From: Atractiella rhizophila
Taxonomy: Eukaryota
DNA: 64,000 bases
Assembly: GCA_021432655.1 (NCBI GenBank)
Contig: MU271235.1
Location: 62,001-126,000, forward strand
Direction of reading: 5' to 3'
The notes beneath the pieces were generated by a model, which saw only the letters and a program-made list of their open reading frames with translations, searched no databases and was not told where the DNA came from. Both the position numbers and the translations under genes were made by a program. Of the stretch, positions 8,165 to 55,130 are shown one piece after another (within the stretch, counting starts at the first letter, position 1; every line of letters begins with the position of its first letter).

Positions 8165-11100
8165 CTACGAATTTTCTAGATCTGCGATGTTGATCCACTC
8201 GTCCTCAGATGGTGGATACCCTTTGTATCGAACGCGATATTTGAAAACTCTATTTCGGGTACCGAACCATTTCCCATCAACAATTGTTTCTACTTCCCAT
8301 TCCTCAATTCCATTCACCAATTCCGGTGGTGGTTTGGGCAACTGGACTCTGCCAGGGATGGAGTTACGCCCGTCGCTGAACTGACATGATTGTTGAGCGC
8401 AAATTCTGCGTTGGGGAGTCCTGAGTCCTTCCACCCAATTATCCTGAAGGTGATTACAGAAAATGCGCAAATATTGCTCAACTTCTTGGTTCATACGTTC
8501 AGTCTGGCCATCACTTTGTAGATGATAGGCTGTTGATGGTAAGCCTTTGATACCCAATAGGCGAAAAAGCGCAGATGTGAATTTAGACACAAACTCTTTT
8601 CCTCGATCGAAAATTGCGACATCGAAAAGTCCATGTAGCTTCCATACGTGGTCGCGAAAAAGTCTTGCAAGGCCCTCTGCATCCATCGTCAAATGGGTGG
8701 GGATGAGATGGGTGCGGAGTCTGTCAACTATGACAAAAATCGTGTCAAACCCCCCAGATTCTGGGAGTGGTCCAACCAAGTCCATGCTGACAATTTGCCA
8801 GCGACGTGTGGGAATGTCATTTGGTTGCAAAAACCCGACAGGTGGGGAAGGAAAGTTTTTCGTTCTGTGGCAAGTGTGACAGGCGCCGACATAGCAGCGC
8901 ACGTAATGTGCTAAACCTGGCCACCAGTAGTACCTTTTTATGAGAGCAGTCATCGATTTTACGCCTGGATGACCAGCGATTTGCGAATCATGCAGGTCTT
9001 GCAAAATCGAGCGGCAAATTTCGTCGTCGCGGGGAATGTAGAGTTTTCTGCGAAAATAGACAGCGCCATCGACTTCTTGCCACTCCCGTCGGCGAATTGT
9101 GTCGACTGGTTCGCCTAGGATCTCTCTCAAGGCTTTGACTACTTGTTCTTCCCGTTCAGGTACCTTTTCACGCGTTCCAGTATACTCAACTCCGACATTT
9201 GTCTTGTAAGCGCAACCGCGCTCCCAGTCGCGTTGATCGTGATACGATCCGTCTCGAAAAAACGTTCTGGGAGTAATACTACGTCGAAGTTGTCATAAGT
9301 CGCCGGTTTGAGATCCGGTCGCCGACTGAGCGCATCTGGTTTTGCAGAGTTTTGTCCAGGACGGTGTAAAAGAGTGGAGTTGAAGGATGCAAGTTCGGTG
9401 ATCCAGCGTGCCTGTCGCCGATTCAACTTTTGTGGCATTCTAAAACACTCAAGTTTTTTGTGATCGATCAAGATCAGAAATGGCTCATCAGTACCTTGAA
9501 GGTGTCTCCATTCATGCAGTCCACACATAATCGCGAGCATTTCTTTGTCGTAGGTGTCATAGTCAGCGTCGAGCGATTTTGACACGAGACCAAGAGGATG
9601 AAACTTCCCATCTGGCTTCATTTGCGAACAAAACAGCGCCTGTCGCGAAATTTGACACGTCAACTTTGAGCAAGAATTGTCCTATCTGTTCGGGATGTGC
9701 CAAAACAGGTGCCGAAGTCATGAGCTGTTCAAAGCGGCGAACGAACGTTGCCGATCTACCCCCCAGACCCAGGAAACCTCCATTTTCGTCAGTTCATATG
9801 AAGGTCGTGTGATGTGACTGAATCTGTCGCAAAAGCGGCAATAGAAATTAGCGAAACAGAGGAACATTTGGACTTCCTTCATTTTTTTGGTTGTGGCCAA
9901 TCCATCACTCCTGCAACTTTTACTGGATCTGGTTCAATCCCTCTGCTGGAAATGATCAAACCTAGATACTCCACCTCTTCTTCACACCAAACGCATTTCG
10001 GCAAATTTACATAAAGCCCATTTTCGGGCAAATTTGACAAACTTGTCGAACACGTTCCCAATGTTCTTCTTCAGTCTCTATCACAATCAGGATATTGTTG
10101 ACATATATGAAGATGAACGCAGCAGCGATCATCGCGAGAAAAATAGAGTTCAGGAAAGCCTGAAAAGTTGCCGGTAAGTTGCAGAGACCGAAATACATCA
10201 CCAATGGTTTGAAAAGCCCGCGATTTGTGCGAAACGCCGCTTTGTGCTCGTCTCCTTCTTTGATGCAAATGTTGTTGAAACCCTTTCTCAGGTCAATCTT
10301 GCGAAAAATTTCTTACCAGAGACCATAGAGAAAAGGTCAGCTTGGACAGGGAGTGGAGTTTTGTCCTTGATTGTGGCTTCATTCAACTTATGATAGCCGA
10401 AAAGAGGACGAAGTTCAGGTGAGTCTTTTTTGTGTGTAAAAAAGACGGAAGCACCATGTTCACCTGTGCTGGGACATATACGACCAGCACTCAGTTCAGC
10501 GTCAATGAATTGGTTGAGCACCACTTGTTCGTCTCTTTTCAAGGGGTAGATGGGACTAGCATATGGTTGAGCTTCTGGTTTGAGGTTGATAGCATGGTCC
10601 CAAGGCTGTCACGGAGGAAGCGAGGTTTTGAATTTTTCGTCGTCGAAAATATCTGAAAAATCGGCGATTTGCGTCGGTATTTCGACAACACTCTTTGGTC
10701 TCATCGCCGCTGCGTCTTTTGCCGGTTTCTGCGATTTTGTCATAGCAGCTCGTATTGAGGTAGACAATGGCGGGAAGTGTTCGCGAGTGGTAGACACGTC
10801 ATCTGCATTGCAACTGGTAGGGCAACGAGAGAACTCAACTTTCCCTGAATCCCAGTTGATCTCTGGATTGTGGTGTCTTAGCCATCATGACCTAAAATCA
10901 TGTTGACAGTCCCCAACTCCGCCACAGTGAATTGCCAAACTTCGTGATGGGCAGCGATCGAAATGGGTAAATAAGCGACAGAATGGTTGGAACCCCCCTG
11001 ATTGAGGGATCCGTCGTCGATGTTGTAAACGGGCACTGGGAAAGGGAGTTGAGTGACCGGTAGGTTGTATTCAGAAACGAGTTTTGGAGAAATGAAGGAA

Positions 11101-14947: not shown

Positions 14948-17900
14948 TTACAGTACATTCTGCTTCCTGCAACTCTTCTGCAAAGTCAACTTCTTCGATA
15001 CCCTCTTCGAATGCATCTTCATCTTCCACTCTTGCTCAAAATCTTCAGTGGAACTTCCTACAACCTCTGATCCTGTCCGAAGACTGCCCAACCAGGCATG
15101 TACACCTTCCTCTTCGCTCCTTGTTTCTTCCCAAACCCAAGAGAGATCATTAAACCATACTTGTTCAAGGAATTGTAAACGACTCAATTCCTTCTGAAGG
15201 AGATGGAGTGTGGACCATGCACGTTTGAGTGGTGAGATGGACGGGTTCTGGGTCAACTGAATATATGCTGACGGTTGACAGAACGGTGGGGAGGTTGCTG
15301 TAGCGGAAGGGTTATGACGGGAAGAAGAGTCTATCACTACCATTCCAAAGCATTAGCACAGAAAAATCGTCACAAGGAGAAAAAGACACACATGTAGAAA
15401 GATAATCTATGCTCCGAGTAAACTCCAACCTTCTCTCGTTTGCCCAAGCCATCGCACGACGCACTTCCCACCCTACACGCCTTAGCTCCTCCACTGCACG
15501 ATCCCGCTCCATGACCGTTCGTATCCCTGCCTGGATGATCACATCTGTTTGCCACAGCCCTCAGGCACACGTCATGAAGCCATCATTCCAGAAAGGGTCA
15601 TCGAGGGAAAGGGACTTGAGTTCGTCATAAGTTGACAATTTTTTCGGGAGTGCTTCGTCAGGAAAGTCTTGTTCGTACTTCGCAACATGCCGAAGGTAGG
15701 CATTGAAGGTTGTTTTGGCAGCAGGGTGATGTTTGGATACAGAGGCAAGGATACGTTCACGCTTCTTGTATCCTACAAGAATTAGTCTTGATAATGATTC
15801 CTGAGGTTGACAAACCTGTCAAATAACCCCCACGTCGTTCTTTGGCAAGAGTGATCGGACGCAGTTCTTCCTTAATACGAAGGTGACGCCGTTGCAATTC
15901 TAGTTTTGCATACCGAAGAAGGAGAAGCTGTTTTCTCCTCTCTTCTGTTATTTAACACATTGCACATAAGCATCCGGCCTAGAGAGCAAGAAGCACCTTA
16001 CTTTCAGCAGGACAGAGGTCACGAAATGCACCTCCCAACTCCTGTGCGAGTAGTTCCAATTCCGCACTATATTTGTCCATTGCGGCAAGCGCCTTTGCGG
16101 CTGTTTCTGGAAGGATCTGGCGTGTGGACTCAAGTGTTCTTCTACCCTGATGGATCAGCAATGCGACAAAGACTGAAGGAGAGCATCCATACGCAGTTTG
16201 TTCTAGTCGATACTGCAGGCCAAAGAATGCACCTAGTTTCTCCTCTTCCTCCTTTTGTCGAGTTTTTTTGGACTCTTGACCAAGGTCTCTCTTCTCCTGT
16301 CTCCATTGTTCGTAGAAAAACGCTTCAGTGTATTTTGACCCTGGGTGGTGAATGTTGTCGATGGATTTGAGAAAGTCGAGTCGCTTGGACGCCTGCCGCA
16401 AAGAGGTTGTAGCATTAGCATACTTTCAACGAAGGGTTACAGCTATAGACGCACCTGTGAGCGTGCTGAATATAATTGGAACAAGTGGACGACATACCGA
16501 GACCCACAAGTCCTTCTTCAACAATGTGCTGAGCTCGAAACTCAATGGTGAGGAGGCGGTTGTTACGCATCATGTAACGGCATCCTCCAATGATGGAGGA
16601 CATCTTGCTCCATGTCCGCTCCGTTCCTTCGCCCTCTGACTGGCCAAATCCAGTGGAGTACTTGGAGTTGTAATTGATCTGGCAGTCCCAACCATGAGCA
16701 TAGCCATGAAAGGTCGGAAGACGGGCTTGAATTCGCTCTCGGATGTCAGTGGGGAGGAGGTTACGCTGACAATACATTCTCAATGACATTCCACGATTGG
16801 GGTACTACGCACTTTGTCCACATGCTTTTCGAAATTGCAGGCGATATCATATTGGGCTCCAAATCGTCGGTCCACGAAAGCTTGAGCAAGGTATTTAACA
16901 ACCACGACGGAATAGCAAAGTCTGAAGACAGTCAATAAGGTACAAATTCATATGCAAGACTCTGTACTTCTCTCCCGATTTGAAGATGTTTGCAAAGATC
17001 AATGGTTGATCATGGCGGCAAATAGCAGCAAAGAGCCCCGTGTCATCTGAGTTCCTAAAGCTTTACTGGCTCCGTTTGTCGTCTGCAGCTTTGAAAGACT
17101 CCGTACAAGCGTCCTGGTGACATCTAATACTTCAGTCTTGATATAGCGGAAGTACATACCTTGTCATGGGACTTATACTTGCCAGTAGCTGTTTCATTCG
17201 TTTCTCTTGCGTCATCAATGGCCTCCTGAGGGATGAATGATGGAGGATGGCGAAGAGGAATGGCATTGATGGTGCTATTTGCTTGATGCCGCTGAACGAA
17301 GTTGCCATCCATACTGAAGATGTTGTCCGGCACTTTGTCTTCTTTTCGCTCGTTCTCCATTGGTCCGAAGCAGGGGGGGCAGATCATCGCGAGCCGATCA
17401 GAGTTGCGATGATTCAATGTCTCTTCAAGCAGTTGTTGCACTCCTAGGAGGATGCACCGGAACACAGAGACCGTCTTCCCAAATGGAATGCGAAACGACC
17501 GTGCCTGGTCCCAAAGTGAACACTTAGCACACAACCCTAACATGGAGCAGGAACATATGAAGGCGCTTGGGCGAGAGGTGTGGAAGACGAGCAAGGGATG
17601 GCGGACATACTTGATCAGTCCCGCGTCCTTTCAAAGCAGTCGATTTGCCAGGTAGCAGATGAAGATATTTCTGCCATCCCTCAATCCAGCTTTGGATTGA
17701 AATTCCGGAAGGCGCCCACATAGAATGATGAAAGCGAAGGAAGCGGATAGAGAAGGCGGTTCGAGGGGAGTGGGGAGAGGCGGGGAGATATCCCATGCAG
17801 AGAAGTCGGACTGGCTCTGGAGTACATCTGCAGAAAGACACCGTCGCACGGCGTTCACCTTCCCAACAACCCCATGACCTCGTGTTCAACGTAAGGAGAG

Positions 17901-18452
17901 GCAGCATACCTAGGATATCCAGCAAATCTACTTCTTTCTCACTCCTATCGCCCTGCTCGCAGCGACAAAGAAAGACCTCCCCAACCCGATCCTTGAAAGC
18001 TTCCTCGCCATCCGCCCAACCTCCACTCCAACCTTCTAGCAATAAATAATGCGCCACCATCTCTGGCATCAGTTCAGTCCAGCGTCTATCCTCTTCGACA
18101 AGCTTGCTAACATAACGTTCTGATCGATAGCTCTTGCGAAGGAATTGTCGAGCGCGATCCAAACTGGACTGGCTTGGGTCAGAGTGGGTGTACCGTCCTC
18201 CCATTCCCAATCAAATGGTTGTGCACCTTCTGAAATATTCGTGAGAGGGATGGCTGAGGAGTTTGGTGATGGAGGGGAGGAAGGAGAGGAATGCAAGAAG
18301 TCGATGGCATCCATAATCACGTCCTGGGTTCGAGATTTGGCGAGAAATACGTCTGCTCTTCTGCCTGACAGACGACCTGAGCTGGTGAACAACGTTGTCT
18401 TTCCATTATCCTTGAGCGGTCTGACACGCCGGCCGTCTCGTGAACGCTTCAT
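14948..18452 (-). CDS. KDZ transposase with N-terminal CxC1-like cysteine cluster (intron-containing, probable frameshift near 18200)
   Basis: CRC...FCRC..EPVRLLCMGYLPASPHSPRTAFS; ICPPCFG; SMDGNF; GLFAAICRHD; YDIAC; FHGYAHGWDCQ; GQSEGEGTERTWS. Confidence 0.88.
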
Positions 18453-18647
18453 TGGAGCGAGGTTGTCGAGGCTATGGAGGGTGGATTGGGGATGGGCTGG
18501 TCGGTTCGGTTTAGACGCTCAAGGTGGTTCACGAGCGTACGCGTCTTAAAGCTTGAAGGAGGGAGGATGGGAGCAGAAGTTGTTATGATGTGGTCAGAGT
18601 TGTCATTTTCCCAACCACACTGCCAACTCACAAGTTGTGAATCGTTT

Positions 18648-18737
18648 TGAGAATTGGCTGGCGTGCTGGTCTCAAAGACCGTGAATCTGGTCTTCATTTC
18701 TCGGTCTCGTTGTCCTCTAGAACAGCTGACTGGGGTG
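18648..18737 (-). repeat. Right TIR of the KDZ element
   Basis: Inverted copy of 11771-11860, followed by the TSD GATTTTGA. Confidence 0.9.
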
Positions 18738-18745
18738 GATTTTGA

Positions 18746-20159
18746 GCTGTCTCTTTTGGCAGAAAATATATTTTTGGGGTCCGTCTTTCGCCGATGAGAT
18801 GTTTCGAAAGAAGGTTGAATGAGCAGATTCTTCTGCATCAATTCACTGAGATTTTTTCTTTCCAGTCTTCCAGTGATTTTGGGAACTCTCCTTGGGTTAC
18901 TTTGAGATGTAGTGCAGGATTGAGTCCTCGTTTGAAGAAAAAATAAGGGCTTCATCATCAAAGTCAGTCTGATTTGCCAATTCTTCAAATTTGATGATGT
19001 AGGACTCTAGGGTCCCTTTTGTTGGAGTGAAGACAATTTTTCTGCGCAATAAGCTTGTGGTCTGTTTTGTAAAAGCGCGATTTGAACTCCGACAAAAATT
19101 GTTCCCACGAAATTTGTTCCTCATTTTCGACAAGTTGACACAAAATCCCAGCAGTGAATTTTTCCGCATCGCCTTCTTTCATGTAAGAGAGGGTAAATAG
19201 GATTTTTGATTTTTCGGTCGGGAATTGGCCTGGAACGGTAGGGGTGTAGACGTAAATTTCGCGTAAAAATGTCGGAGCTGTGTTAGGCACTCCTTTGAAG
19301 ATTGAAGGTGGATGTTAGGGCAAACACCATGTGCGGTCGCCGATAGGCGATGCGTCTGTAGTGGAGGTAAACCTAAGAGAATACTCTGAGGTCACCACCA
19401 CTACATCTCGATGTATATATACATATGTAAGGGCACTGCCATGAACCGTAACATACTTTGCTTGAAACGTGTAAGATAGCTAAATCAGGAAAGTATTAAA
19501 GGGAATACTTGGAAATAAGATATACTGGGTCGTACTAATGAGAAAGGACAATAAGGTGAAAATGGTGACAGTGCAGACCGGCGAAATGTATAAGGTTTGC
19601 TGAGCGGCGATTTGTGTGAGAAATGGGAAAGCGGCGAACAGCACAGACATGTGCAGAGCGGCGATGGGTAGGCACGTGATCTCATGACATGATAAGGTGG
19701 GTCACATGACCTCGGGTGGTGCATTTCGGTAATGCGTAGGGGCAAGCCTGACAGTGGAGCAAGCTTCATACCTGCATATGGTGCTACTTGGGTAGTCTGA
19801 GGTATAGATGGAGGAGAGTAAGTTTGAGGTATTGGGTCTGTTCATGATAAAAAGGGAGAGGTGATTCCACTGTCTCTAGGAGGGGGCAGTCTGGAGTCCA
19901 ATAATTGCAAAATTCGGTCGTTTGTGTTTTGGACATTGGACCTCAGTTGCGCAATTTCGTTCGCATTCTGGGAGGTCTGCACATTTTGCTGGTTGAAACT
20001 TGTTATGAGGTCTTGTTCGAGTTTTCTGAACTGTTTTTCCGTTGTGAGGTGCAGAGTTTGGAACATTCTTTCTAAGTGCAAGATGTGTTCTTCGCTCGTC
20101 GGCGTGTTTCCATATCTCCCCAAACCTCCGACATTTTTACGTTTTTTGCTGTTTTGCAT
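18746..20159 (-). pseudogene. gag: Gypsy gag N-terminal part, split by a solo LTR; the C-terminal part continues at 11770-11450
   Basis: KLAP|PSIFKG..TFLREI..EKSKILFTLSYMKEGDA..SWEQFLSEFKSRF..YIIKFEELA; beyond the KDZ, PDDMEVDA and degenerate knuckle CRRCQKIG. Confidence 0.8.
19313..19753 (-). mobile_element. Solo LTR, 441 bp
   Basis: TGTTAGG...CCTGACA termini; 5-bp TSD GTGGA at 19308-19312 and 19754-19758. Confidence 0.9.
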
Positions 20160-20412
20160 GTAAGATAACTAAATCTGGAAAGCAATAAAGGGAATACTCG
20201 GAAATAAGAGATACAGAGCAGTACTAGTGAGAAAGGACAATAAGGCGAAAATGGTGAAGGCACAGACCGGCGAAATGTATAAGGTTTGCTGAGCAGCGAT
20301 TGATGTGAGAAAGGAGAAAGCGGCGAACAGCGTGGGCATGAGCAAAGCGGCGACGAGTAGACACGTGCTCCCATGACGCAGTAAAGTGGGTCACGTGACT
20401 TCAGATGGTGCA
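20160..20412 (-). repeat. Truncated LTR copy (probable 5' LTR remnant)
   Basis: Aligns with ~19469-19723; both termini missing. Confidence 0.8.
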
Positions 20413-21240: not shown

Positions 21241-22155
21241 TCAAAGGATAGAATGATCTAGCAGTGACGAATCGTGAAGGGAATGATCTGGCTGAAGATA
21301 TGATTGCTCAGTAAAGAGTCTAGGGAGAGTCAAGGACTGACCTGTACTGTGATACCCTTTTTTTAACACGTCGGCTACTCCTTTCGTGCGCTCTTCTTCA
21401 ATCCTTTGGTTTCTGGCCAACTGGTTTCTTCTAGCGCGGTCCCAAAACCCCTGAACGAACCGAGCCGTCTCCGGTTTCAAAGCGGCTAGGAATGAGCCTT
21501 TATCGTCTCCGATTTCACGCGCGTAATACAGCAAGCAGTAAGTAAACAAGCCACAGACCTGGAAGCGATGTTGCCTGGAATAATAATCATTAGGCTCTCG
21601 TAACTCATCCTGGAGCCTGTAAACCATTGAATCGAAGAAAGCTGCAAACGTGGGGAAAAAGACGCCTTCATCGAATTCGCATGAGGATATTTTCATCGTT
21701 GTTTCTGGAGATGCGATGAAATCGAAAGGAGACGAAGGTAACAAGCGAACCCATTGAGGAGCTTTTCCATCCGTTCGTTCGAAGCGAATTGGACGGGGGG
21801 CACGGTCTCGAGAATAGTTGAAACCTTCCTCAGGATGAAAGTTCAGAGGGCATTCCACCTCTTTGAAGGGCGATCCAGAGGCTCGGAGGGCATCGGCAGC
21901 TGTTGAAAGCATATCGTCCGATACAAGCAGGTAGAGGTCCCACGTCCCTGTCGGAATGAAGTGTGCGTAACCCAAAGCGTGCTCCATGAATACGACGACT
22001 GGCTTCACACCAAAATTGGCGATTATCCGAGCGGGTTCCAATTCTTCTCTTTGCCCTTCGACTGGGTAAAAGTCTAACTTGCTTGGGATTTCATCGGCGA
22101 ACGGCTTCACAAAATCATCTTCCAACTCTTGCAATCGTCTCCACTTTTTGTCCAT
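21241..22155 (-). CDS. 304-aa hypothetical protein, probable degenerate nucleotidyltransferase fold
   Basis: Intact intronless ORF; VVVFMEHALGYAHFIPTGTWDLYLLVSDDMLSTAADALR resembles the NTase N-terminal strand-helix-strand pattern but lacks GG and the second Asp. Confidence 0.6.
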   Translation of the reverse strand: MDKKWRRLQELEDDFVKPFADEIPSKLDFYPVEGQREELEPARIIANFGVKPVVVFMEHALGYAHFIPTGTWDLYLLVSDDMLSTAADALRASGSPFKEVECPLNFHPEEGFNYSRDRAPRPIRFERTDGKAPQWVRLLPSSPFDFIASPETTMKISSCEFDEGVFFPTFAAFFDSMVYRLQDELREPNDYYSRQHRFQVCGLFTYCLLYYAREIGDDKGSFLAALKPETARFVQGFWDRARRNQLARNQRIEEERTKGVADVLKKGYHSTGQSLTLPRLFTEQSYLQPDHSLHDSSLLDHSIL

Positions 22156-22599
22156 GGTATTTCAAGTAGGGATGTAAGACGTTCGTATGGTCGAGCTTAA
22201 AGTGATCGATATCGGGTGGTAGACCAGTCGGAATAATCAAGATTAATGCGCTGTCGTCACATATATATGAGCGCCTGTGAGACAGTTAAGAGCAAGTTTG
22301 CTCCACAAAGGGAAGGTGGTTAACAAAAAAGAGAGACTGGATTTGAAAGGTCAAAAACAAGGTTCCGATAGATTGACCTTATGGCCTCGACGTTCTCTTG
22401 TTGAGGGCCATAAATGCTTTGTTCAACGCAAGGGGCAAGTCTTCATCCACAAAGAAAACGAAACTGAAGGAAGGACAAGGTCCGATCATTACTTTCATGA
22501 TCTGGGTACCTTGTTGTATAACGGTTTACATAAAAGGCTTCAAACGCTGGCATCCATGATCCCCAGTCTCAACCAAGCAATCAGTAAGAATAGCATAAA
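22156..22599. promoter_or_regulatory. Putative bidirectional promoter (444 bp)
   Basis: Lies between divergent ATGs at 22155 and 22600; TATA-like ATATATAT at 22261 and TGTATAA near 22515. Confidence 0.4.
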
Positions 22600-23508
22600 A
22601 TGTCTTCGCTCAGTTCACAGCTAAGCTCTCGGCTCAGTATGGATTCCCGATATATATCTTTCATAGTGGCTCTTGTATGCCACCAGCAAAACATTCGCTA
22701 CTTCATTACCGGTGGTACGGCGATGAATCTTAATGGGCTATCAAGAACGACGATTGTGAGTATGAAATGGAAATAATTCAAGCCGTTGATGATCTAATTG
22801 CAGGATGCTGATGCTCAACTAGAGCTACATGCTGCAGGAGAATTGGCGAGTCATATCTCGAATCTACAGTTCAAGATGCTTCCTCGATCCATTTCGGCCA
22901 TCGAAACGAAATTCCATGCGTACAAGAACTTGATAAAGCCGCAGTCTGGTATGACAGAGTTCATTCAAGACTTACCGAAGCGAAAGGATCCGCTGGTCAT
23001 CGACACTACCAAAGTGACGCAGCTGCTTTTGGATGGCCAGGAGTTTTCAAACAGCCTGAAGCAACTGCCAGGTCTTCTTCGAGATGAAGAATTAACTATA
23101 GACCTGCGCGTACAGACGATGCTCTTTGCTCGTTTCGTTGGAAAAGTGGAAGTGGATCAGATTCCGATATACTTCGCGAAACCTCCACTCCTAATTCTCC
23201 AAAAAATTATCAGTGCTCCGAAAAGAACCGAACGAACGACAGCGAAAACAGATGATAAAGTCGTGGACATGAGACTGACGAAACGTTTGAAAGATATTAC
23301 CGATGTCTTGAGTCTCACCCATAGGATGATAGCCGATGGGGCTTCTTTGGAGGACCTGAGACATTGTATTGACGAGTACTCCGGTCCGGTTGACTGGCAG
23401 CTAGTCTACGACGATTTCACTGCAGCTTGGAAAGACACGGTCGGAGACAGTGTGACAGCTAGTGTAGACTGGGCAAGATTCAAGAGAGTTTTTGGAGCAC
23501 TTTATTGA
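22600..23508 (+). CDS. AbiEii/MenT-like nucleotidyltransferase, 286 aa, exons 22600-22755 and 22804-23508
   Basis: 48-nt intron GTGAGT...CTAAT.GCAG; spliced product has YFITGGTAMNLNGLSRTTIDAD, then PPLLILQKIISAPKR and KRLKDITD. Confidence 0.8.
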
Positions 23509-24358
23509 GATCTCCTATATAAGCATGCTTCGAATATGGTTTTGTTTTCAAGTTCGCAAAGCGCCTCAATGTATTTAGCATGGTCATTACATCTGGAAAG
23601 GAGAAATGAAAGCTTCTCGAGTTGATGTAGGTGGATGGGCCCGATAAACCAGTAAATAGCAACCAGCTTGCTAAGAGAGGCGAGAGCATGGAAAGTTGGG
23701 GGGGGGGGACGCGCAAGCTGATTTATTTATGATTGCCTCGCACTGACCCAACCCCTTTCTCATGCACATTCCATCAACGGCCCACACCAACACCAAAGAC
23801 GGAACAAGTGCAAGGAGAACGAGCTTACCAGAAGACCCAGGTTCAACGTTCAACCCTTACCAGCCTTACCCTAGGTCAGTTGAAGACAAGGCCAAAACTT
23901 GAAGTGGCAGTTGATTGAGTGTCGCCCTCGGGCCACAAGTTCCGACCGCTGCTCTTCGTCCTTTTGCTGTTCGTTCCAACAAATCTGTTCTTCAGCTTTG
24001 GAACAGCACGCACTGGCCAGGTTGGGTGGAGACGAGCCGAGCGGTCGGAGGTCGGGAGCACGTGCCTGATATTGTGGCAGAATGGAGCCACCCAGCCGAA
24101 ATTTTGGTGCCTGTTCGATTTTCAAATTTTAGCCAGACACAAGAGAGATGTTCAGTTGTCAGTGTAGAGGCTATTTCTTCATCGTACTAGTTTGAAAGTG
24201 ACTCGATTTGTGGCCCTGCTTTTATGCCTTTATAAATCCATGAACATGCAACCAGTTGGGTATCCATCAGAGGTGGGGGCATTCGCGCAATGGCGTCTCT
24301 GCATTTCAATGTATGTCTTTCACTCAAATCCACGTACTCTTAATGATATTGTCATAAA

Positions 24359-30438
<6,080 letters not shown>

Positions 30439-50241: not shown

Positions 50242-51800
50242 TCAAGCAGCATCATCCTCCTTGAATTCCACAAAAAGCTCCAACTGCACATCTCGCTTCT
50301 CTACCTCACGTCGCAGAGCTTGAATTGCATTCCTGCCTTCTTGCGTCTTAACCTCCAACATTTCCGCATTCGATCCGATAGAGTATCTCTTGATCCGTGG
50401 AAACGAATGACGGCCAATAATATCGGCAAAAGCCAACCAGACTCGTCCATCTTCCTTTCCGTTAAAGGAAAGAGAGCAACCGTCCGACACCCCGAGGATG
50501 GAAAGACAGCTAGTGCATTTTTGGTGTTGAAACAGGGAAAGAACCGACGACGGGAGATCGAGGAGTGCGTTGTTGGTTGACGCTAGATCGGATAACGACA
50601 AATAACCCTCAAAATCACTGGCAAAGCGCAAGAGGTCCATGGGCTCAACTGTTGAGACTGGATTGACATGAAGAACGATCAGGCTTCGTTTCGTCTTGAA
50701 CAGGGTCGATAGCCCGCCGTAACTGAAGTCGCAACCTTGCAAGTAGACGGCTTTCGATTTAGACACACGAGGTTCGCTTGAAGGAATGTTGAGTTTCAGT
50801 GCACAAGCTATGATGGTGACAGTGTCTATAGACGGGAAGTCTGGAAGTGAAGGCAAGACTTCCAAAATGTCGTAGCGATCTTCCATTTCCACCGAAGACC
50901 CGGAAACGGTCAACTGACGCAAGCGATGGAATATGAAAGGGAACTGGAGCAGATTTCTGTGTTCAGGTCGAGTCGGAGGGAGCAAAAGATCAAGGTCATG
51001 CAGTGTAGGAGAAGCCAGCTGAAGGAGATTCGTGATGTTTCCCAACTCTGATGGGGTCCATGCTGCAGGGTGCAGACAAAGACTCTTGAGATTTGAAAGA
51101 GAAGGAAGCTTTGCTGGAACAACCGTATTGATCAAGGAAAGACTTCGCAGCTCGAAATTATGTTCGGTCACATCAAAATCTATCGTCCCAAAGGAGCATT
51201 CCAAGGATTTGAGGTGAGTCGACGTTCCGAGCAGCGGAAATACCTCAGATATGGGTTGACCAGGAACATAATGGATAGTGAGGCCTGTCAAGCTGGTAAA
51301 GAAGGAAAGGTCCAATTCGCCAAGGTTCGGAAGGAGAAAAATCCAAAGAAGTCGAGTTCAAATGTCAGAGAAGTGATGTAAGGAGCTGCCTTCGAGATGA
51401 ACAAGCCGACATAGTGGCTAGCCAAAATCGATCCTTCACAGAACCATTCCTGGCACCATTCTGCGAGGTTGTTCTTCCCGTCCTTATCACACGGCTCCGA
51501 TGGTTCTTTACACAAAGGCTTGTGGAATGTGAACGAGGCTCCGTTTACAGAAATGCTTCGTACGTATCGAAAATTAGATTGGTTTTCGAAAAATCGTTGC
51601 AATCGAAATAGGTAACGTTCAAAACGGATAGCCTTGAGCGGATCATGCGGAAAGTGGAGGACGATAGGTGTGTTTGAGATAAGCAAAGGACGAGCGATCG
51701 ATTTCCATTCTGCGCACACCAAGTGGCATTGAAGCAAGTCATGTGTAGGAAGGAAGGCGAGAATGGCGCCAATGATCTCAACGGGTGCAGTGGACCTCAT
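50242..51800 (-). pseudogene. F-box protein paralog with a single 1-bp frameshift near 51290
   Basis: PVEIIGAILAFLPTHDLLQCHLVCAEW; colinear with 53497-55053; GCTTTGACA in the paralog reads GCTTGACA here. Confidence 0.85.
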
Positions 51801-53496
51801 GGAGCACCCGATGCAGCGATTGAAAGCTCTTAAGGTAGATATGCCTAACAGAACACTATTAGCACTTGTCCGACGCAGGCACAGCTCACTGATATGTTGT
51901 CGGAGCGGTCAACCTTGAAGCTAAGCTTGAAGGCAGGTGGGGAAAGACTCTTGCGACGACCTGCGACATCCACCATCCTATAACCTCTCTTACATCCACT
52001 TGTGCCTCCTTGCGTCTATCCAGTTGAGGACGACCTCGTCAGTGCCCCCCTCTCATGTTACCTTCTACCCGACTCCACACATCATCATCCTAGGTTATAT
52101 AACTAGCAACCTTCCATCTGCTTAGTATCCGTCCAAATCTTGTTTAACTTCATGAATCTGTCTCAGTCTCCGCTACCATGAGTCTCGAATCTGTCTTGGT
52201 TGCAGAGGTGTATTGATGCTTTTTGTGGAGCGGGTGAGGATGAATCCGTCTGGTCTATGAGACGACTGCGGGCTTTGGTGACCACTGGCAAGTGCACAAG
52301 TAGATTCAACATGAATTCGCTCTGCTCCTACCTCCTCCTGCCGTGTCCGTCACTCCCTCCCACTGACGTTCATATCAAACTCGTTGTTGCCGAAAACACT
52401 AGAAGTGGACGACCTCCAAAGCCGCCAGGGCTCGAATCGGCCCTCCCTACTGTTTCTCGGATCACATCTCTCCCTCCATCCCAATTGGTGCCTCGACCGA
52501 CTACTGGAACGCTGGCTCCAAGTCTTGGGTCTAAATGGCAGACGATCCGGATTGTCACTGCTCACAAGCGCAACCAACAGCAACCTAACGTCCAATAGTT
52601 GACGTTTGTGGCTGCTGCAACCTGCGGGAAGGGTTATCATTGGAACTTGATGGGCAGGGGCATAGACGGAGGCGTTTGCTCGCTCCGTCCCTTCTCTCAT
52701 CCGCGGCCGCTCTAGCGCACCGTCCCGCTCACTCGAACGTCATTTCGGTGTCTCTGACTCTGACTCCTCGGGTAGCTGCTCTATTCTAGACGTTCCTCTG
52801 GGATTTGAACAATGCCGCCATTCATTCCACGACTAGACCAGGGGAAGTGACTCTCTGTCTTCAGCGATGCGATTGTTCGATAAGGACGATGAGAAGGAGG
52901 ACGAAGGAGATTAGAAGGACGATAAGTGGAAGCAGAAGATTGAGGAGTAGGTTTCTTTACTCGCCGCGTTTTTCGGACAATTGCTGATGCGATTGGGAAC
53001 TAGATTGCAAATATTTCCCGTAATAGTCGGCGCTGGCGCAGCTTTGTCGAAGAGATGGTACGTCTCTCATTCTCTTTTTGATGCTGTTAGACAAATGTAA
53101 TTCTTATAGGTCAGCACCAACATTTTGGTTGTCAATCTCGATGAACGAAGCACGATTTGAACTCGCTGGGCGTTTACGGTGGCATTATTAAGAGAAGGGG
53201 ACGGTAGAACCATCAGGGTGGTATAAACTGCGATCTGACAACAGTACGATGCGTACGAACTAAGTGAGCCTTTGACATGAAGCTGGATTTTCAGGCTAAG
53301 GGATAAAGTATTTTCATTGCTATTTGCTCAATAATATCGCTACACTCGATTTTGTTAACAATATTCTACAACGATAACCGCATTCTTGGTAAAAGAAAAG
53401 GAATAACAGATGAATACAACACATATTCGAAGCTACAGGACGGCGCATGCTAGCCAAGAGGGATCTCTAACAGCCAGATGCCATCGAGTCGTCATT

Positions 53497-55053
53497 TTAA
53501 GGTGCGTCATCCTCGATGTATTCCACAAAAGTGCTCAACGGCACAACATTCTGCTGCTCCACGGCTAAATCTAAGGCCCGAATCGCGTCTCTCCCTGCTT
53601 GAGTCCTAACCTCCACAGGCTCTCTTTCCGACCCAATAGAGTATCCCTGGATCCCCGGAAACGAGTGACGGTTGATAGTATCGGCAAAAGCCAACCAGAC
53701 TCCCGCATCTTCCTTCCCATTGAAAGAAAATAAGGCACCAGCCGAAAAACCAACGATGGAAAGACAGCATGTGCAATGTATGTGTGGAACGACGGAAAGG
53801 AGCTCCATATCACGTATGGGATCGCTGGCAGTTGTCGACTCGAAGAGCTGCAGAAATCCCTGGCAATCATTAGCAAAGCGCAAGATATCCATGGCGGACT
53901 GGGACCGGATCCCTTCGAGCGGAGCGACATGAAAGGAGATCATGTTTCGCTTTGTGGTAAATAGAGATGATAATCCGGTGTAGCTGAAGTCGCAATTTTG
54001 CAACAAGACGTTTATGGGTCTAAACACCCAAGGTTCGAATGAAGGAGCTTTAAGACATATTGCACTATGTTTGATGGCGACGATGTCCATAGTTGGGAAA
54101 TGTGGTAATAAAGGTAGGACTTCCAAAACGTCGAGGCGCCTTGGTTGGTCGGAAGGTCCGGAAACGCTCAACTGCCTCAAGCGAGGGAAAACAACGGGGA
54201 ATCGGACAAGATGCCTGTGCTCATTTTGAGTGTGGAGCAGTGCAAGATTGAGGGTTTGCACTGTAGGAGAAGCAAGTTGAAGCAGATTTGCGACATGACC
54301 GAGTTCTGCTGGAGTTCTTCCTATAGCGTGGACATGAAGATCCTTTAGATTTGAAAGGGAAGGAAGCTTTGCTGGAACAATTGCAGAATTCAAGGAAAGA
54401 CTTTGCAACTTGAAACTGTGTTCAGCTACATCGACGTCTGCAGTTCCAAAGGTGCATTCCAAGGATTTTAGTTGTCGTGACGCCCCAAGCAGGGGAAATA
54501 TGGCAGATATAGATCGGGTAGGAACATATTGGATCTTGATGTCTGTCAAAGCTGGCAGAGAAGGAAACGGCCATTTTTGCATGGACTCCCAACCGAAAAA
54601 GGCGAAAAAGTCAACTTCAAACGTCAAGGAGGTGATGTAAGGAGACGCGTTCTCGATGAACGAGCGAACATAATCGCGAGCCAAAATATTCGAACCATCG
54701 TCGCCGCACAATTTTCTATCCATCAGATCCTTCTCCTCGCCCTCGGGTTCTTTCCACAATGGCTGGTTGAATGTGAATGCAAACGCGTTCATCGAAATCC
54801 TTCGTACATATTGAAAGTTGAGCTCGTTGTCGAAAAATCGTTGCAATCGGAATAAATAACGCTGAAAACCGCCGTCTTTAAGAGGGTCGTGCGAAGTGTC
54901 AAAGACGATAGTCGTTTTCGAAATGAGCAAAGGACGAGCGAGCGACTTCCATTCTGCGCTCACCAAGTGGCATTGAAGCAAGTCGCAGGTAGGAAGGAAC
55001 GCAAGGATGACGCCAATAATCTCGAGAGGTATAGTAACGGAGCTGGACGTCAT
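53497..55053 (-). CDS. F-box protein with Leu-rich C-terminus, intronless CDS
   Basis: IPLEIIGVILAFLPTCDLLQCHLVSAEWKSLA; LKSLEC, LSNLKDLHV and LRQLSV repeats. Confidence 0.85.
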   Translation of the reverse strand: MTSSSVTIPLEIIGVILAFLPTCDLLQCHLVSAEWKSLARPLLISKTTIVFDTSHDPLKDGGFQRYLFRLQRFFDNELNFQYVRRISMNAFAFTFNQPLWKEPEGEEKDLMDRKLCGDDGSNILARDYVRSFIENASPYITSLTFEVDFFAFFGWESMQKWPFPSLPALTDIKIQYVPTRSISAIFPLLGASRQLKSLECTFGTADVDVAEHSFKLQSLSLNSAIVPAKLPSLSNLKDLHVHAIGRTPAELGHVANLLQLASPTVQTLNLALLHTQNEHRHLVRFPVVFPRLRQLSVSGPSDQPRRLDVLEVLPLLPHFPTMDIVAIKHSAICLKAPSFEPWVFRPINVLLQNCDFSYTGLSSLFTTKRNMISFHVAPLEGIRSQSAMDILRFANDCQGFLQLFESTTASDPIRDMELLSVVPHIHCTCCLSIVGFSAGALFSFNGKEDAGVWLAFADTINRHSFPGIQGYSIGSEREPVEVRTQAGRDAIRALDLAVEQQNVVPLSTFVEYIEDDAP

Positions 55054-55130
55054 CTTCACTCGATGTCTCAATTCAGAGATTGAAAGGTTGTAGCGCAGAT
55101 GTACCTGACAGAGGAACATCAGCAGTTATT

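Follow-up and report, generated by a model that had tools for sequence, protein, structure and literature searches.

A divergent gene pair in Atractiella rhizophila encoding a candidate AbiEii/DUF6036-clan nucleotidyltransferase and an orphan protein predicted to bind it

Two divergent genes and their second copy

A stretch of 64,000 nucleotides from the root-associated fungus Atractiella rhizophila (contig MU271235.1, positions 62,001 to 126,000; hereafter the window, in whose coordinates all positions are given) carries, between positions 21241 and 23508, two divergently transcribed genes that we call the left gene and the right gene. The right gene encodes a protein with the motifs of AbiEii/MenT-type nucleotidyltransferases (NTases), and the left gene encodes an orphan protein that may be its non-catalytic partner. 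The original prediction had described two intact genes of about 300 amino acids diverging from a 444-bp spacer, between a nest of transposable elements and an ABC transporter gene. As the gene coordinates, the spacer and the context are all as described, that observation is correct in every particular; the products are 304 and, after splicing, 286 amino acids long. The features of the pair are:

21241-22155, minus strand: left gene, a single-exon open reading frame (ORF) of 304 amino acids, with a conserved core at about residues 36-235 and a non-conserved C-terminal tail
22156-22599: divergent intergenic spacer, 444 bp between both start codons
22600-22755, plus strand: right gene exon 1, residues 1-52, with the N-terminal helix, motif I and the first half of motif II (R49, T51)
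22756-22803, plus strand: right gene intron, 48 nt, phase 0, spliceosomal GT..AG, splitting motif II between I52 and D53
22804-23508, plus strand: right gene exon 2, residues 53-286 and the TGA stop, with D53-A-D55, LVIDT and motifs III and IV

The right gene starts with the ATG at 22600 and its intron holds two in-frame TAA codons. The public protein P0003 (245 amino acids, hypothetical protein, A. rhizophila) is 100% identical to it over exon 2 and reads RTTI followed directly by DADA across the junction, which confirms the 48-nt splice. P0003 begins at Met42 (22723), however, and so lacks both the N-terminal helix and the GG motif; the long N-terminus is confirmed by the full-length paralogue P0004 (298 amino acids), which keeps it. 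The public model of the left gene, P0005, is a partial protein of 143 amino acids with a different 3' end and a spliced, unrelated C-terminus, and the public gene models of both genes thus look wrong. The left protein starts with MDKKWRRL, the same start as in its paralogues P0001 and P0002. Since both genes are conserved as proteins in paralogues, they are more than chance ORFs. The 444-bp spacer between them is presumably a shared bidirectional promoter; a scan of it for bacterial promoters and terminators returned nothing, a type of scan that does not apply to a fungus.

In a search space of 5.8 billion clustered proteins, the only homologues found were paralogues from the same species: the left-type proteins P0001 (locus tag ending 1341732; 53% identity to the window left protein) and P0002 (ending 1338196; 49%), and the right-type protein P0004 (ending 1338195; 58% identity to the window right protein). 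P0002 and P0004 have consecutive locus tags and are both reported on one 51,569-bp contig, their adjacency being inferred from the tags. It is this second left/right pair with consecutive tags in the same genome that argues for the two genes acting as a unit. A single duplication of both genes together, with purifying selection acting on each afterwards, would account for this pattern.

Nucleotidyltransferase motifs and family placement of the right protein

The original prediction had read an AbiEii/MenT-type motif pattern in the right protein, and that pattern is present. Motif I is ITGG (residues 36-39; 22705-22716), which has the h-G-[G/S] form in the window protein and in P0004 alike. Motif II is R49-T-T51-I-D53-A-D55, with the family-specific Arg and the Thr two residues ahead of the first Asp; P0004 has R-K-T-N-D-A-D at this place. 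Motif III is QKIISAPKR (residues 185-193, including K186 and R193; 23200-23226), in keeping with a Lys set among hydrophobic residues in a KLxAaxxR-like stretch, motif IV is the +DxxD pentad KDITD (residues 215-219; 23290-23304), and LVIDT (residues 116-120; 22993-23007) offers a candidate third carboxylate. All of these are kept in both copies. When set against the motif definitions for DUF1814/AbiEii in the available portions of PMC3985639 and PMC7205606, the one departure is in spacing: thirteen residues separate G39 from D53, so that the hG[G/S]x15DhD spacing of DUF1814/AbiEii is absent, whereas the same 13-residue spacing, ungapped, is found in the DUF6036 alignment.

Searches against curated families placed the protein near this clan without any family's threshold being passed. 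At E ≤ 1, Pfam and NCBIfam gave nothing for the left ORF, exon 1, exon 2 or the intron read-through with X at the stops, and NCBIfam gave no match for the right protein. The AbiEii family PF08843 matched neither P0004 at E ≤ 10 nor the window pieces at E ≤ 1. Residues 24-89 of P0004 matched Pfam PF19502 (DUF6036) at E 9.4e-4 with 19.5 bits, below the cut-off of 23.6, and the PADLOC AbiEii model matched P0004 at E 0.016 with 12.5 bits.

For alignment-to-alignment comparison, prokaryotic NTase families were gathered by profile search: PF08843 was found in 67 of 151 genomes, PF19502 in 63 of 201 and PF14907 in 74 of 121, the first two tallies including 5 and 2 unpublished genomes, respectively, none of whose sequences were used. 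Domains from 30 of 32, 28 of 30 and 30 of 30 fetched loci were aligned, the four omitted being L137 (unpublished) and L149, L156 and L175 (internal stops). The resulting AbiEii, DUF6036 and NTP_transf_5 alignments recognise each other at 86-97% hhalign probability, which served as a positive control. Against the 28-sequence DUF6036 alignment, the right-family alignment scored an hhalign probability of 94.4% (E 9.5e-8) over just 28 ungapped columns spanning motifs I and II; against AbiEii it gave a local match at motif IV only (P 0.034), a motif also aligned in hmmsearch, and against NTP_transf_5 the value was P 0.11. With a hidden Markov model built from the 28 DUF6036 sequences, the spliced window protein scored 28.2 bits and P0004 scored 33.8.

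Feature-based comparison points the same way. In the ESM Atlas the nearest clusters to P0004 are two from Basidiomycota (scores 0.96 and 0.95), with PF08843 in 11% and 16% of their members; archaeal AbiEii/DUF6036 clusters come next, and the Atlas model of P0004 has a template modelling (TM) score of 0.56-0.57 against bacterial clusters named AbiEii/AbiGii. Single-protein and profile searches of solved structures, for left and right proteins, returned chance-level matches only (E ≥ 0.07), with no significant sequence match between the right protein and solved MenT/AbiEii chains, and tblastn of P0004 against plasmids gave no match at E ≤ 10.

Taken together, motifs and profiles identify the right protein as an AbiEii/DUF6036-clan NTase that retains its full catalytic set, is closest to DUF6036 and is probably an active enzyme. 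By the curated criteria of PF08843 it is not a member of that family. The original assignment to the AbiEii/MenT type thus holds for the clan and for every catalytic motif but not at the level of the family, given the PF08843 threshold, the 15-residue spacing and the greater nearness of DUF6036.

The left protein and the predicted complex

The left protein has no match in Pfam, NCBIfam, PADLOC or PHROGs. Neither it nor its paralogues match a helix-turn-helix (HTH) or AbiEi model in Pfam, NCBIfam or PADLOC, and by these searches the pair lacks an adjacent winged-HTH antitoxin. Two segments of the left protein are pertinent:

21925-21990, minus strand: putative degenerate NTase motifs I/II, residues 56-77 (FMEHAL ... 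PTGTWDLYLL), placed by hhalign registers
21763-21798, minus strand: the block with the strongest conservation in the left family, residues 120-131 (PRPIRFERTDGK), near-invariant in all three left-family sequences

The original prediction held that the left protein has the same fold as the right one with its catalytic residues lost. Aligned to AbiEii, DUF6036 and NTP_transf_5, the left family gave hhalign P values of 0.047, 0.026 and 0.044, in each case centred on motif II at one and the same query position. This register puts E58-H59 in place of G-G/S, D73 on the first catalytic Asp and Y75 in place of the second, and it aligns the helix DDMLSTAADALRASG with the helix that follows motif II in the NTase families. 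The G[GS] and the pair of motif II carboxylates are thereby reduced to D73, and these replacements fit an inactive protein. When single sequences were used, P0001 and P0002 (84.5% identical to each other) held the register in all three families and the window left protein in only one of the three; among 144 neighbouring bacterial ORFs it was held by one, itself a genuine AbiEii protein. The coherence of the register in P0001 and P0002, compared with 1 of 144 bacterial ORFs, makes a degenerate NTase-like core plausible, and we give it a little over even odds.

Structure prediction added little to this. An AlphaFold2 model of the left protein, made from a shallow alignment, had a predicted local distance difference test (pLDDT) score of 46.6; the order of its secondary-structure elements (helix, two short strands, strand, helix, four strands, helices) would suit an NTase core, in what is a poor model. 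Searched with this model, VIA-align wide returned helical-hairpin matches only (Z ≤ 5.8) and Foldseek returned nothing from the PDB at E ≤ 0.001, but the model is too poor for the missing NTase to be informative. In the ESM Atlas the left protein adjoins unnamed fungal clusters (score 0.97, 202 shared features), with a recognition value of 2173, below the meaningful level. A shared fold thus finds weak support in one register seen in three NTase families, with P values of only 0.03-0.05, while left and right proteins have no detectable similarity to each other (hhalign of the two alignments, probability 0.03%).

Binding of the left protein to the right one was also part of the original prediction. 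The complex was predicted for P0002 and P0004, the cognate paralogue pair, rather than for the window proteins, since both are full-length database proteins. Three ESMFold2 runs gave interaction prediction scores from aligned errors (ipSAE) of 0.76, 0.00 and 0.74 (median 0.74), and all three controls scored 0.00. Among solved complexes 51 of 78 attain the ipSAE mark used here, and among mismatched pairs 2 of 108. The partner had a pLDDT of 63 or more, and the runs agreed in at least 0% of contacts, the floor of 0% arising because one of the three runs scored 0.00. On the enzyme side the predicted interface comprises residues 48-52, that is the motif II Arg and Thr directly ahead of the DxD, and residues 199-227, the stretch with motif IV. 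On the partner side it comprises residues 62-77, the region of the degenerate motifs, and the helices 188-218 and 238-250; the P0002 counterparts of the left motif I/II stretch that take part are residues 62, 65, 71-74 and 76-77. These models support, but do not show, binding of the left protein to the right enzyme at its catalytic cleft. Because the predicted interface covers both walls of the catalytic cavity, the modelled partner sits where an inhibitor would. On the claim of binding, then, two runs and their controls speak for it and the run at 0.00 does not.

The same interface could, however, belong to an obligate heterodimeric enzyme whose active site is completed by the left protein, a pseudo-enzyme subunit with a structural or activating role, and which serves housekeeping or metabolic nucleotidyl transfer with no toxin logic. 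Several NTases of the DNA-polymerase-beta (Pol-beta) fold form dimers whose active sites lie where the subunits meet, and here the predicted contact spans the motif II regions and C-terminal helices of both proteins; both genes are moreover intact in two diverged copies, and the left protein itself is weakly NTase-like. Were this a housekeeping enzyme, other fungi should have it too, but the searches found neither family elsewhere, and the nearest prokaryotic families occur in toxin-antitoxin-like two-gene modules, as seen in a 28-locus DUF6036 sample and in the available portion of PMC3985639. We consider a heterodimeric enzyme unlikely.

Roles could also be reversed, with the right NTase a modifier or antidote that nucleotidylates the left protein as the effector. 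In HEPN-MNT modules of type VII, the NTase AMPylates its partner toxin, and in the predicted interface the left loop 71-77 does face the catalytic strand of the NTase. In its motifs III and IV, nevertheless, the right protein carries the signature of AbiEii/DUF1814 toxins and not that of minimal nucleotidyltransferases (MNTs), and the left protein carries no HEPN or effector signature in Pfam, NCBIfam, PADLOC or PHROGs. A reversal of this kind seems to us very improbable.

Genomic setting and readings of the pair

To the left of the pair lie transposon remains: Ty3/gypsy-type pol fragments at 8165-9681 (minus strand) with Integrase_H2C2, rve, chromodomain and RT_RNaseH domains, and a KDZ-transposase CxC1 cluster at 17.5-18.2 kb. 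To its right is a multi-exon ABC transporter gene, 24300-30140 (plus strand), with ABC_membrane at 28680-29102 and ABC_tran at 26564-27061, 29254-29610 and 29728-30135. This setting bears on a further explanation, namely that the two genes are unrelated lineage-specific genes joined by a chance bidirectional promoter, or by passive segmental or transposon-mediated co-duplication, and that the complex is a false positive. The position beside KDZ and Ty3 remains (17.5-18.2 kb and 8-10 kb) would suit such an origin, as would the restriction of these multi-copy families to one genome, the failure of one complex run, the 7 of 44 neighbour pairs, drawn blindly, that reach the complex mark as well, and the lack of sequence similarity between left and right. 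Against it stand the controls at 0.00 in three of three, compared with 0.74-0.76 in two runs of the pair, and the mere 2 of 108 mismatched pairs that reach the mark. Contact is predicted at the catalytic motifs and not at some arbitrary surface; within 14-30 kb the pair is flanked by neither terminal nor long direct repeats; and both partners have diverged by similar amounts yet are intact. On balance we judge a chance association improbable.

We also considered a delimited mobile element carrying the pair, and abandoned the idea because the pair is not flanked by inverted repeats or by long direct ones.

Other features of the window include, some 3 kb from the pair, ORFs at 17124-19006 (minus strand) with CxC1/CxC2 cysteine clusters of the kind found in KDZ (Kyakuja-Dileera-Zisupton) transposases. 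A direct repeat of 254 nt and 84% identity (19470-19723 and 20159-20412, 689 nt apart) overlaps Cys/Pro/Ser-rich minus-strand ORFs and is probably a transposon remnant. Further away, two F-box ORFs (51291-51908 and 53500-55125) lie close together within 50245-55125 (minus strand).

The reading we prefer, at a probability of roughly 0.45, is a lineage-specific, co-duplicated module in which the NTase is regulated by its partner, resembling a toxin-antitoxin pair. The right gene would encode an active NTase of the AbiEii/MenT/DUF6036 clan, as its motifs suggest, and the left gene a non-catalytic partner, possibly a decayed NTase-like protein. In the models the partner docks across the catalytic cleft, on the Arg49/Thr51 strand beside the DxD and on the motif IV helix, and the docked partner may hold the enzyme in check. 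The free enzyme could then add nucleotides to an RNA 3' end, for example the tRNA acceptor stem, and arrest growth, by analogy with AbiE and MenAT. Inhibition, substrate, toxicity and biological role are in this scheme what we infer from motifs, models and bacterial relatives, and a true killer/antidote role is speculative.

Among the relatives, the AbiE system (AbiEi-AbiEii; Streptococcus agalactiae and Lactococcus; DUF1814, PF08843) resembles the pair in being a two-gene module whose NTase has motifs I-IV, all found in the right protein (PMC3985639, available portion). Its partner AbiEi binds the toxin directly, according to the available part of bioRxiv 10.64898/2026.01.19.700257. Unlike AbiEii, the right protein does not reach the PF08843 model and has a G-to-D spacing of 13 instead of 15, and unlike AbiE the partner here is no winged-HTH AbiEi regulator and the genes are divergent and eukaryotic, one of them with an intron, with no operon and no phage context.

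In MenA3-MenT3 of Mycobacterium tuberculosis (TakA-TglT, Rv1044-Rv1045), the sequence R76-x-S78-x-D80-x-D82 matches R49-x-T51-x-D53-x-D55 of the right protein. The accessible sections of PMC7205606 report that MenT3 is switched off by phosphorylation of Ser78, a position occupied by Thr in some family members, and that the antitoxin MenA3 acts on the MenT3 catalytic cavity. MenT3 extends tRNA 3'-CCA ends (PMC7450476, in part), which is the model for the activity proposed here. The predicted placement of our partner recalls AbiEi and MenA3, both of which act on toxin active sites (bioRxiv 10.64898/2026.01.19.700257 and PMC7205606, in the portions cited). A difference from MenT3 is that the right protein has no significant sequence match to solved MenT/AbiEii chains.

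Extending this comparison, the pair might be a eukaryotic counterpart of type VII toxin-antitoxin systems. The decayed NTase-like partner would sit on the cleft at Arg49/Thr51 and silence the enzyme, perhaps by provoking auto-phosphorylation of Thr51 in the way that AbiEi and MenA3 treat their toxins, and its loss would free an enzyme that extends tRNA 3' ends and blocks translation, giving a suicide or killer/antidote device for allorecognition, antiviral defence or drive. We regard this fuller version as a long shot.

DUF6036 (PF19502), a family of uncharacterised prokaryotic nucleotidyltransferases, is the closest by sequence and shares the ungapped 13-residue spacing of motifs I and II. 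The right protein differs in being eukaryotic, in having about 100 more residues between the core and motif III and in scoring below the Pfam cut-off. At 7 of the 28 DUF6036 loci an HTH- or AbiEi-type ORF is adjacent: at five (L154, L160, L162, L167 and L174) an upstream HTH_3/HTH_31 ORF of 234-276 amino acids with an N-terminal HTH, and at one each AbiEi_4 and HVO_A0114 (loci L158 and L155). This suggests that DUF6036 belongs to an undescribed AbiE-like two-gene module.

Two ORFs neighbouring DUF6036 and AbiEii genes (L179:2186-2959, minus strand, and L132:590-1399, plus strand) have weak similarity to NTase profiles, with hhalign probabilities of at most 62% against AbiEii, and each may be a second, diverged NTase gene of its locus.

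Fungal genes of killer/antidote or allorecognition type, such as the wtf, Spok and het loci, are modules of selfishness or conflict with a patchy, lineage-specific distribution near transposons, and in this the locus resembles them. We know of no gene of the wtf, Spok or het type with a Pol-beta-fold NTase or a layout of two proteins as enzyme and inhibitor.

Several points weigh against the partner-regulated reading. Of the three complex runs, one gave 0.00, and the mark passed by the pair is also passed by 7 of 44 neighbouring pairs drawn blindly; the AlphaFold2 models from shallow alignments are poor for the left protein (pLDDT 46.6) and for P0004 (37.5) alike. The two genes diverge instead of forming an operon, the partner does not belong to the HTH/AbiEi type of antitoxin and the right protein passes no curated family threshold, PF08843 included. 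The closest family, DUF6036, is uncharacterised, the term being absent from the literature searched, and this makes the tRNA-toxin mechanism an extrapolation. A third left-type copy, P0001, has no annotated right-type partner. Searches of clustered proteins, prokaryote genomes and metagenome contigs found no relatives of either family outside the species: the right profile, run by hmmsearch against 1.84 billion representatives, recovered nothing but the protein itself, 168 pattern matches to that profile in prokaryote genomes included no relative, and there were none among 136 (left profile) and 169 (right profile) matches in metagenome contigs. With no relatives elsewhere, the linkage of the two genes rests on a single within-genome duplication, with adjacency taken from locus tags.

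Domain annotation has already revealed DUF1814/AbiEii-like proteins in fungi (PMC3985639, PMC13468701 and PMC13448219, in the portions available), and the last two give the function of such proteins as unknown. Two Basidiomycota clusters are the nearest ESM Atlas neighbours of P0004, a point of likeness to these annotated proteins. In the available portion of Dy et al. 2014 (PMC3985639), however, the fungal DUF1814 homologues are not linked to putative antitoxins, whereas here an NTase stands beside a co-duplicated partner predicted to bind it. The literature searched, with supplements outside its scope, describes no fungal NTase/partner pair, and the original statement that no fungal system of this layout had been characterised fits the account of Dy et al.

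AbiEii/MenT enzymes are established growth-arresting toxins of bacteria, and their fungal homologues appear in the literature so far as domain hits only. What is known of the present pair is the clan of its enzyme; what would be new, as far as sequence and models indicate, is a partner that is not an HTH protein and is possibly a pseudo-enzyme, together with the eukaryotic setting. An intact catalytic site with a co-duplicated partner predicted to lie over it makes this a concrete two-gene candidate for toxin-antitoxin logic in a eukaryote. Should the left protein prove to be a decayed NTase, antitoxins would gain a new type, in which a pseudo-enzyme neutralises the active enzyme it is related to.

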